Positions 2,291-25,129 of a stretch of 64,000 nucleotides of DNA are shown here, piece after piece. Position 1 is the first letter of the stretch; the number at the start of each line of letters is the position of its first letter. Source of the DNA: Escherichia coli (GTDB taxonomy: Bacteria; Pseudomonadota; Gammaproteobacteria; Enterobacterales; Enterobacteriaceae); NCBI RefSeq assembly GCF_003334385.1, contig NZ_QOWN01000023.1; one strand, given 5' to 3'. Made by a program: the position numbers and the translations under genes. A model generated the notes under the pieces. It was not told where the DNA came from. It ran no database searches and saw nothing but the letters and a program-made list of their open reading frames with translations.

Positions 2291-3031
2291 ATGCTGCAAA
2301 ATATTCGAATTGTGCTGGTGGAGACGTCACACACCGGCAATATGGGTTCTGTTGCCCGTGCCATGAAAACAATGGGATTAACCAATCTGTGGCTGGTTAA
2401 TCCACTGGTGAAACCCGACTCCCAGGCGATTGCCCTGGCAGCAGGGGCCAGCGATGTGATTGGTAATGCTCACATCGTCGATACGCTCGACGAAGCGTTA
2501 GCCGGTTGTAGCCTGGTGGTGGGCACCAGCGCACGTTCCCGCACGCTGCCATGGCCGATGCTCGACCCGCGCGAATGCGGCCTGAAAAGCGTCGCTGAAG
2601 CGGCAAATACCCCGGTGGCGCTGGTGTTTGGTCGCGAGCGCGTCGGCTTGACCAATGAAGAGTTGCAGAAATGCCATTATCATGTCGCGATTGCGGCTAA
2701 CCCGGAATACAGCTCGCTGAACCTGGCGATGGCGGTTCAGGTTATTGCCTATGAAGTGCGCATGGCCTGGCTGGCAACTCAGGAAAACGGCGAGCAGGTC
2801 GAGCATGAAGAGACGCCGTATCCGCTGGTCGATGATCTGGAGCGTTTTTATGGTCATCTGGAACAAACGCTGCTGGCAACCGGTTTTATCCGTGAAAACC
2901 ATCCGGGGCAGGTGATGAATAAATTGCGCCGTCTGTTTACCCGTGCGCGCCCGGAAAGCCAGGAGTTGAATATCCTGCGCGGGATTCTGGCTTCTATTGA
3001 GCAGCAGAATAAAGGTAACAAGGCCGAATAA
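2291..3031 (+). CDS. trmJ: tRNA (cytidine/uridine-2'-O)-methyltransferase TrmJ (SpoU family)
   Basis: 246-aa ORF; SpoU/TrmH-type fold signature; position upstream of iscR. Confidence 0.92.
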
Positions 3032-3032
3032 C

Positions 3033-3396
<364 letters not shown>

Positions 3397-3463
3397 AACA
3401 GGTACAAACGCCACGATAAAAAAATGGCACTGAAGGTTAAATACCCGACTAAATCAGTCAAGT

Positions 3464-3535
3464 AAATAGTTGACCAATTTACTCGGGAATGTCAGACTTG
3501 ACCCTGCTATGCAATACCCCCACTTTTACAATAAA
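3464..3535 (+). promoter_or_regulatory. iscR promoter region with IscR type-1 operator-like sites
   Basis: ATAGTTGACCAATTTACTCGGGAAT followed by a second TTGACC-containing block and TACAAT (-10-like) just upstream of iscR; matches remembered IscR autoregulatory sites. Confidence 0.55.
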
Positions 3536-3573
3536 AAACCCCGGGCAGGGGCGAGTTTGAGGTGAAGTAAGAC

Positions 3574-4062
3574 ATGAGACTGACATCTAAAGGGCGCTAT
3601 GCCGTGACCGCAATGCTTGACGTTGCGCTCAACTCTGAAGCGGGCCCGGTACCGTTGGCTGATATTTCCGAACGTCAGGGAATTTCCCTTTCTTATCTGG
3701 AACAACTGTTTTCCCGTCTGCGTAAAAATGGTCTGGTTTCCAGCGTACGTGGACCAGGCGGTGGTTATCTGTTAGGCAAAGATGCCAGCAGCATCGCCGT
3801 TGGCGAAGTAATTAGCGCCGTTGACGAATCTGTAGATGCCACCCGTTGTCAGGGTAAAGGCGGCTGCCAGGGCGGCGATAAATGCCTGACCCACGCGCTG
3901 TGGCGTGATTTGAGCGACCGTCTCACCGGTTTTCTCAACAACATTACTTTAGGCGAACTGGTTAATAACCAGGAAGTGCTGGATGTGTCTGGTCGTCAGC
4001 ATACTCACGACGCGCCACGCACCCGCACACAAGACGCGATCGACGTTAAGTTACGCGCTTAA
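3574..4062 (+). CDS. iscR: Fe-S cluster regulator IscR (Rrf2 family)
   Basis: 162-aa ORF; N-terminal HTH; cluster-ligand cysteines in [13 protein letters not shown]. Confidence 0.97.
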
Positions 4063-4074
4063 TAAAAAGAATTC

Positions 4075-4136
4075 AGAATCAGGCCGGAGTGCTAAATACT
4101 CCGTAAACACGGTCGTACATCCAGCCGGTAGCCTGA
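4075..4136 (+). other. Structured iscR-iscS intergenic RNA element (long-range dyad AATCAGGCCGG ... CCGGTAGCCTGATT with nested hairpins)
   Basis: Dyad symmetry read directly; consistent with the intergenic structure reported to stabilise the iscR fragment after RyhB-dependent cleavage of the isc mRNA. Confidence 0.45.
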
Positions 4137-4173
4137 TTCCTTGCATTGAGTGATGTACGGAGTTTATAGAGCA

Positions 4174-5388
4174 ATGAAATTACCGATTTATCTCGACTAC
4201 TCCGCAACCACGCCGGTGGACCCGCGTGTTGCCGAGAAAATGATGCAGTTTATGACGATGGACGGAACCTTTGGTAACCCGGCCTCCCGTTCTCACCGTT
4301 TCGGCTGGCAGGCTGAAGAAGCGGTAGATATCGCCCGTAATCAGATTGCCGATCTGGTCGGCGCTGATCCGCGTGAAATCGTCTTTACCTCTGGTGCAAC
4401 CGAATCTGACAACCTGGCGATCAAAGGTGCAGCCAACTTTTATCAGAAAAAAGGCAAGCACATCATCACCAGCAAAACCGAACACAAAGCGGTACTGGAT
4501 ACCTGCCGTCAGCTGGAGCGCGAAGGTTTTGAAGTCACCTACCTGGCACCGCAGCGTAACGGCATTATCGACCTGAAAGAACTTGAAGCAGCGATGCGTG
4601 ACGACACCATCCTCGTGTCCATCATGCACGTAAATAACGAAATCGGCGTGGTGCAGGATATCGCGGCTATCGGCGAAATGTGCCGTGCTCGTGGCATTAT
4701 CTATCACGTTGATGCAACCCAGAGCGTGGGTAAACTGCCTATCGACCTGAGCCAGTTGAAAGTTGACCTGATGTCTTTCTCCGGTCACAAAATCTATGGC
4801 CCGAAAGGTATCGGTGCGCTGTATGTACGTCGTAAACCGCGCGTACGCATCGAAGCGCAAATGCACGGCGGCGGTCACGAGCGCGGTATGCGTTCCGGCA
4901 CTCTGCCTGTTCACCAGATCGTCGGAATGGGCGAGGCCTATCGCATCGCAAAAGAAGAGATGGCGACCGAGATGGAACGTCTGCGCGGCCTGCGTAACCG
5001 TCTGTGGAACGGCATCAAAGATATCGAAGAAGTTTACCTGAACGGTGACCTGGAACACGGTGCGCCGAACATTCTCAACGTCAGCTTCAACTACGTTGAA
5101 GGTGAGTCGCTGATTATGGCGCTGAAAGACCTCGCAGTTTCTTCAGGTTCCGCCTGTACGTCAGCAAGCCTCGAACCGTCCTACGTGCTGCGCGCGCTGG
5201 GGCTGAACGACGAGCTGGCACATAGCTCTATCCGTTTCTCTTTAGGTCGTTTTACTACTGAAGAAGAGATCGACTACACCATCGAGTTAGTTCGTAAATC
5301 CATCGGTCGTCTGCGTGACCTTTCTCCGCTGTGGGAAATGTACAAGCAGGGCGTGGATCTGAACAGCATCGAATGGGCTCATCATTAA
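4174..5388 (+). CDS. iscS: Cysteine desulfurase IscS (PLP-dependent)
   Basis: ORF 4150..5388; start at ATG 4174 ([13 protein letters not shown]) for 404 aa; PLP-lysine motif SFSGHK; active-site Cys in [10 protein letters not shown]. Confidence 0.97.
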
Positions 5389-23900: not shown

Positions 23901-25019
23901 ATGCATAACCAGGCTCCAATTCAACGTAGAAAATCAACACGTATTTACGTTGGGAATGTGCCGATTGGCGATGGTGCTCCCATCGCCGTACAGTCCATGA
24001 CCAATACGCGTACGACAGACGTCGAAGCAACGGTCAATCAAATCAAGGCGCTGGAACGCGTTGGCGCTGATATCGTCCGTGTATCCGTACCGACGATGGA
24101 CGCGGCAGAAGCGTTCAAACTCATCAAACAGCAGGTTAACGTGCCGCTGGTGGCTGACATCCACTTCGACTATCGCATTGCGCTGAAAGTAGCGGAATAC
24201 GGCGTCGATTGTCTGCGTATTAACCCTGGCAATATCGGTAATGAAGAGCGTATTCGCATGGTGGTTGACTGTGCGCGCGATAAAAACATTCCGATCCGTA
24301 TTGGCGTTAACGCCGGATCGCTGGAAAAAGATCTGCAAGAAAAGTATGGCGAACCGACGCCGCAGGCGTTGCTGGAATCTGCCATGCGTCATGTTGATCA
24401 TCTCGATCGCCTGAACTTCGATCAGTTCAAAGTCAGCGTGAAAGCGTCTGACGTCTTCCTCGCTGTTGAGTCTTATCGTTTGCTGGCAAAACAGATCGAT
24501 CAGCCGTTGCATCTGGGGATCACCGAAGCCGGTGGTGCGCGCAGCGGGGCAGTAAAATCCGCCATTGGTTTAGGTCTGCTGCTGTCTGAAGGCATCGGCG
24601 ACACGCTGCGCGTATCGCTGGCGGCCGATCCGGTCGAAGAGATCAAAGTCGGTTTCGATATTTTGAAATCGCTGCGTATCCGTTCGCGAGGGATCAACTT
24701 CATCGCCTGCCCGACCTGTTCGCGTCAGGAATTTGATGTTATCGGTACGGTTAACGCGCTGGAGCAACGCCTGGAAGATATCATCACTCCGATGGACGTT
24801 TCGATTATCGGCTGCGTGGTGAATGGCCCAGGTGAGGCGCTGGTTTCTACACTCGGCGTCACCGGCGGCAACAAGAAAAGCGGCCTCTATGAAGATGGCG
24901 TGCGCAAAGACCGTCTGGACAACAACGATATGATCGACCAGCTGGAAGCACGCATTCGTGCGAAAGCCAGTCAGCTGGACGAAGCGCGTCGAATTGACGT
25001 TCAGCAGGTTGAAAAATAA
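23901..25019 (+). CDS. ispG: 4-hydroxy-3-methylbut-2-en-1-yl diphosphate synthase IspG (GcpE)
   Basis: 372 aa; conserved position between rodZ and hisS; C-terminal Cys ligands ([16 protein letters not shown]). Confidence 0.95.
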
Positions 25020-25129
25020 TAACGTGATGGGAAGCGCCTCGCTTCCCGTGTATGATTGAACCCGCATGGCTCCCGAAACATTGAGGGAAGCGTTGAGGGT
25101 TCATTTTTATATTCAGAAAGAGAATAAAC

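Follow-up and report, generated by a model that had tools for sequence, protein, structure and literature searches.

The operator and promoter region of iscR in Escherichia coli has been characterised in detail since 2001-2013. Type-1 motifs at the isc promoter are specific for the cluster-containing form of IscR, and holo-IscR represses the operon (PMC12594620); Type-1 motifs are likewise given as holo-IscR-specific in PMC6599224, and their published consensus is ATASYYGACTRWWWYAGTCRRSTAT, 25 bp in length (PMC6599224, PMC3899308). In E. coli K-12, sites A and B of PiscR are such Type-1 operators according to Schwartz 2001, Giel 2006 and 2013, Nesbit 2009 and Rajagopalan 2013, as far as these works are cited in PMC12594620 and PMC6599224. 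The two main sites are bound independently by E. coli IscR, and a “minor, nonconserved site C” is described for E. coli as well (PMC6599224). On the iscRB binding oligo of the Kiley laboratory, [2Fe-2S]1+-IscR showed an apparent Kd of 22 nM, and oxidation of the cluster raised the iscRB Kd to >1000 nM and made binding at least 50-fold weaker (PMC12594620). The Type-2 sites of IscR, such as those of hya and sufA, are recognised by the same protein but differ from these operators in having another motif and in being bound by apo-IscR too. When literal site sequences were looked for in the literature, the consensus string was the only one found, and nothing on PiscR was met in PMC8561392, PMC10845959 and PMC8262890.

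The closest described counterpart outside E. coli is the iscR promoter of Pseudomonas aeruginosa PAO1, which also carries two abutting Type-1 sites (PMC3899308, PMC6599224). DNase footprints in P. aeruginosa extend from −67 to −43 (site A) and from −42 to −18 (site B) (PMC6599224), and the −35 element was assigned, from primer extension, to a TTGACC inside site B (PMC3899308). As in E. coli, the −35 TTGACC of PAO1 falls within site B, and holo-IscR acts as the repressor (PMC3899308, PMC6599224); the PAO1 site B sequence, ATAGTTGACCTAATTACTCGGATAA, shares 20 of 25 positions with its E. coli counterpart when the two strings are compared by eye. Nevertheless, the two promoters differ in several respects, since PAO1 has a better −10 hexamer (CATAAT), an 18-bp spacer and a 29-nt leader, and its sites are reported to be bound sequentially or cooperatively, B and then A, whereas those of E. 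coli are bound independently; PAO1 also has no site C (PMC6599224).

Here, we analysed a 64-kb stretch of DNA (hereafter the window), for which a first-pass annotation made from the letters alone had proposed IscR autoregulatory operators overlapping the iscR promoter at 3464-3535. The placement upstream of iscR was borne out: in the ORF reading of the window, iscR opens with an ATG at 3574 and encodes 162 aa, and the plus-strand ORFs follow one another in the order trmJ, iscR, iscS, iscU, iscA, hscB, hscA, fdx, iscX and pepB, while the minus-strand ORFs near the site are yfhR and suhB. The segment 3380-3620 was found in 5426 of 5426 complete E. coli genomes, with at least 99% identity in 5402 of them, and the gene annotated there is iscR. 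Positions 3400-3576 correspond, with every base the same, to MG1655 2,662,305-2,662,129, where the iscR ATG lies at 2,662,131 on the minus strand. By these matches, the window is assigned to the E. coli chromosome and the region to the iscR regulatory region; compared with E. coli K-12 PiscR, it is the same locus, and neither operator nor promoter shows any difference. The coordinates of all features are collected in Table 1.

Table 1. Operator, promoter and leader features upstream of iscR (window coordinates; species counts refer to the 80 aligned iscR loci).
Feature	Position	Strand	Remarks
IscR Type-1 operator site A, ATACCCGACTAAATCAGTCAAGTAA	3441..3465	+ (nominal; palindromic)	24/25 to consensus; about −65 to −41 relative to the inferred start
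IscR Type-1 operator site B (“iscRB”), ATAGTTGACCAATTTACTCGGGAAT	3466..3490	+	22/25 to consensus; about −40 to −16
Predicted −35 hexamer TTGACC	3470..3475	+	Inside site B; TTGAC at site B positions 5-9 in 76/80 species; same TTGACC is the −35 in P. aeruginosa
Predicted extended −10 TG	3490..3491	+	T is the last base of site B; TG at positions 25-26 from the site B start in 77/80 species
Predicted −10 hexamer CAGACT	3493..3498	+	17-bp spacer after the −35; A2 and T6 of the hexamer (positions 28-33 from the site B start) kept in 76/80 species; conservation collapses directly downstream
Inferred transcription start	3506 (within ~2 nt)	+	MG1655 2,662,199; 68 nt before the ATG; from the −10 position
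iscR 5′ leader	3507..3573	+	Includes TACAAT 3527-3532, hairpin CCCCGGGCAGGGG 3539-3551 and Shine-Dalgarno GAGGTGA
Candidate minor site C	3513..3539		Half-site ATACCC; Type-1 PWM −8.3 bits; 4/16 mismatches to Type-2 core
Alternative candidate site C	3535-3560		8/24 mismatches to Type-2 consensus
iscR coding sequence	3574..4062	+	First gene of iscRSUA-hscBA-fdx-iscX

Several repeats and RNA elements were observed around this region. Four tandem 91-bp REP/BIME units, with 98% matches, occupy 3031-3397 between trmJ and the IscR operators, and within this array Rfam reports naRNA4 three times (3093-3164, 3184-3255 and 3275-3346). The array lies outside the operator and has one 91-bp unit more in this strain than in MG1655, and the unit number is therefore polymorphic among strains. 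Downstream of iscR, the iscR-iscS intergenic segment 4063-4172 matches the Rfam family RF01517 iscRS, “iscR stability element”, with 138 bits; this is the known structure behind the RyhB-dependent differential decay of iscRSUA mRNA. The known sRNA genes ryfA, IS128 and sroE were located through Rfam at 11547-11850, 11982-12190 and 25019-25110, respectively.

To place the operators, the 25-bp Type-1 consensus was scanned on both strands of the 64-kb window at a threshold of at most three mismatches, with 100 dinucleotide-preserving shuffles as the control. Only two matches were found, site A with one mismatch and site B with three, and none of the 100 shuffles contained any. They adjoin without a gap, A upstream of B, with their first bases 133 nt and 108 nt, respectively, before the iscR ATG. 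The window was also scored with a Type-1 PWM, a log-odds matrix trained on the A and B sites of 78 further species, none of them Escherichia. Site A, the best match in the window, reached 33.4 bits and site B 30.7 bits, while the next PWM match gave 11.5 bits and the highest score over 20 shuffled windows was 17.3 bits. The 25-mer quoted in the first-pass annotation, ATAGTTGACCAATTTACTCGGGAAT, thus proved to be a real Type-1 site, site B itself, and the matrix scan upheld the call. The annotated span 3464-3535 was only partly apt: it contains site B in full but misses site A except for 2 of its 25 bases.

Aligned with the published iscRB oligo, window positions 3464-3493 are identical at 29 of 30 bases, with a single spacer base differing. 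Because the oligo matches bar this one base, 3466-3490 is identified, by its sequence, as the published site B, and 3441-3465 as site A by its position. At the differing base, a degenerate W position of the motif, the oligo in PMC12594620 has CCATTTTAC and the genome, including MG1655, has CCAATTTAC; the base was either changed on purpose or misprinted in that paper.

To assess conservation, 80 iscR loci, one per species, from Enterobacterales, Vibrionales, Alteromonadales and Aeromonadales were aligned with site B as the anchor. Site B was present with at most five mismatches in all 80 species, and site A, with at most six mismatches, stood exactly 25 bp upstream of it, abutting and in the same register, in 72 of them. 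Conservation extends from the first base of site A through position 34, numbered from the start of site B; further downstream, the information content falls below about 0.4 bits per column. That the two sites are chance palindromes without a regulatory role is practically negligible as a reading: a Type-1-like 25-mer can indeed arise by chance, as an intrinsic terminator at 45475-45499 that reaches 21/25 to the consensus illustrates, but two abutting matches with one and three mismatches have no equivalent in the shuffles, the sites are conserved across four orders of Gammaproteobacteria, and binding to this very sequence has been published (PMC12594620).

The terminator just mentioned, AAAGCCGACTTTAAGAGTCGGCTTT, is the best consensus 25-mer of the window after sites A and B, with four mismatches, all others having at least seven; its PWM score of 11.5 bits is below the shuffle maximum of 17.3. 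It forms a perfect hairpin followed by a T-run and stands directly behind a plus-strand ORF whose end is at 45459. As an IscR site it was rejected, and it is regarded as an intrinsic terminator and a chance look-alike.

The relation between the operators and the core promoter was then examined. Site B overlaps the core promoter, in that it holds the −35 TTGACC together with the spacer and reaches the extended −10 TG. The sequence presents the features of a sigma-70 extended −10 promoter, namely TTGACC, a 17-bp spacer and TG-T-CAGACT, a hexamer that has both A2 and T6. A simple sigma-70 pattern scan of 3000-4200 found no canonical promoter, because CAGACT matches TATAAT at only 2/6 positions; the exact CAGACT occurs in 33 of the 80 species. 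We nevertheless assign 3470-3498 as the predicted, conserved extended −10 sigma-70 core promoter of iscR because of its conservation, its extended −10 TG and orthology. The proposal that IscR operators overlap the iscR promoter is therefore well founded, since the −35 hexamer and the spacer lie under site B, and for the same reason the accompanying picture of a site B that precedes the promoter does not hold.

From the position of the −10 hexamer, transcription is predicted to start about 7 nt further downstream, near 3506. A start at 3506 fits exactly the coordinates reported for E. coli, −65 to −41 for site A and −40 to −16 for site B. Primer extension in P. aeruginosa put the start 42 nt downstream of the first site B base (PMC6599224, PMC3899308), and transferring it via site B gives position 3508 of the window.

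The first-pass annotation had set a second TTGACC block, taken as a further IscR site, ahead of a TACAAT −10-like element. In the corresponding promoter, the second TTGACC would be the −35 and TACAAT the −10, the second block would itself be an operator, and the IscR sites would lie on or upstream of that −35. All three strings that it quoted are present, ATAGTTGACCAATTTACTCGGGAAT at 3466-3490, the second TTGACC at 3498-3503 and TACAAT at 3527-3532, and both hexamers are good ones, each matching its consensus at 5/6 positions. This architecture is, however, extremely unlikely. The spacer between the two hexamers would be 23 bp, outside the sigma-70 range of 16-18 bp, and the distance from TACAAT to the first TTGACC is 51 bp; the sigma-70 scan reported no such promoter. 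As an IscR site, the second TTGACC block has no covering 25-mer with 10 or fewer mismatches, and the highest PWM score of any 25-mer over it is −21.8 bits, a value equalled or beaten by 3.5% of window positions.

Neither hexamer is conserved. Their columns carry less than 0.4 bits across the 80 species, and in an alignment of 16 relatives with long leaders, 15 Enterobacteriaceae and one Dickeya, TTG alone is kept of the second TTGACC, and no part of the leader varies more than the TACAAT segment. The distance from site B to the ATG is 100-108 nt in Enterobacteriaceae versus 62-70 nt in most other families, corresponding to a leader about 40 nt longer; because of this shorter distance, the layout with TACAAT as the −10 does not fit most species outside Enterobacteriaceae, in which there is no room for it. 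By sequence and position, the real second operator is instead site A, upstream at 3441-3465, and TACAAT lies within the transcribed leader, at about +22 to +27.

Another reading is that the leader of Escherichia and Citrobacter holds a minor secondary promoter that works without a −35, uses TACAAT as its −10 and provides IscR-independent basal isc transcription. With 5/6 matches to the consensus, including A2 and T6, and with its retention in E. coli, E. albertii and Citrobacter werkmanii, the hexamer lends itself to such a reading, which we nonetheless consider very unlikely: it has neither a TG extension nor a −35 at 16-18 bp, it is not conserved in other Enterobacteriaceae with an equally long leader, and a match of this kind is not rare, a TATAAT-like hexamer being found somewhere in this A/T-rich stretch in 12 of the 80 species. 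No report of a secondary iscR promoter was found in the literature examined. The extended −10 promoter at 3470-3498 thus remains the preferred assignment.

For the minor site C of E. coli, two stretches of the leader were considered (Table 1). The best 25-mer covering TACAAT, 3515-3539, scores −8.3 bits with the Type-1 PWM and is in the top 0.28% of positions, and both candidate stretches score within background for the Type-1 PWM and the Type-2 motif. A Type-2 motif scan of 3420-3580 gave nothing above background, the best matches having 8/24 and 4/16 mismatches. On their sequence, 3513-3539 and, alternatively, 3535-3560 are weak candidates for the published site C.

With regard to RNA structure, the leader folds no better than shuffled sequence (z = +1.24), and no Rfam family was found within 3400-3573. 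A small GC hairpin with a conserved A-run before it, CCCCGGGCAGGGG, was observed at 3539-3551; it is conserved across Enterobacteriaceae, and in Superficieibacter one C-G pair is replaced by G-C in a compensatory flip. Its minus-strand reading, at 3533-3552, is that of an intrinsic terminator, GCCCCTGCCCGGGGT followed by TTTTTATTGT, and no minus-strand gene ends there. At the inferred start, 3504-3515 (CTGCTATGCAA) is conserved in Enterobacteriaceae, with GCTATG, at about +1 to +6, nearly invariant. A leader uORF from the ATG at 3509 was considered and rejected, as Cedecea and Enterobacter sp. Ag1 have the ATG followed at once by TGA. We regard it as unlikely that the leader extension of about 40 nt, restricted to Enterobacteriaceae, adds a further level of isc control to the one exerted through sites A and B; in that case it might act as the poorly defined “site C”, as an element for pausing or stability near the start, or as a terminator that keeps antisense transcription away from the promoter.

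Taken together, 3441-3498 very probably comprises the iscR promoter of E. coli and the pair of operators for its autoregulation, abutting Type-1 sites for repression of the operon. The identity, significance, register and conservation of the two sites and of the core promoter elements come from the present analysis. In the proposed mechanism, each of the abutting 25-bp palindromic sites would take one [2Fe-2S]-IscR dimer. A dimer on site B would sit on the −35 and the 17-bp spacer up to the extended −10 TG, and one on site A, at about −65 to −41, would take the usual place of an UP element and the RNA polymerase alpha C-terminal domain. The occupied sites would then exclude RNA polymerase, so that iscRSUA-hscBA-fdx would be repressed; steric occlusion of the promoter is thus the mechanism of repression that we infer, while cluster-dependent binding and repression are taken from the literature. 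Under greater demand for Fe-S clusters, or upon oxidation or loss of the cluster, IscR would no longer bind Type-1 sites and the operon would be derepressed, and the outcome would be a negative feedback loop on Fe-S supply.

The idea of operators lying over the promoter, as put forward in the first-pass annotation, is right and already textbook, and its details are partly right, so that as a whole it is partly supported. The operator architecture of iscR is ordinary, already known biology, and what the analysis adds in this respect is correction: both operators and the core promoter now have their right coordinates, and TACAAT and the second TTGACC are recognised as look-alikes. The IscR feedback loop sets the capacity for Fe-S cluster biogenesis in E. 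coli and many pathogens, which makes the element important biologically, and the analysis shows strong conservation of the architecture of tandem sites and an extended −10 across Gammaproteobacteria.
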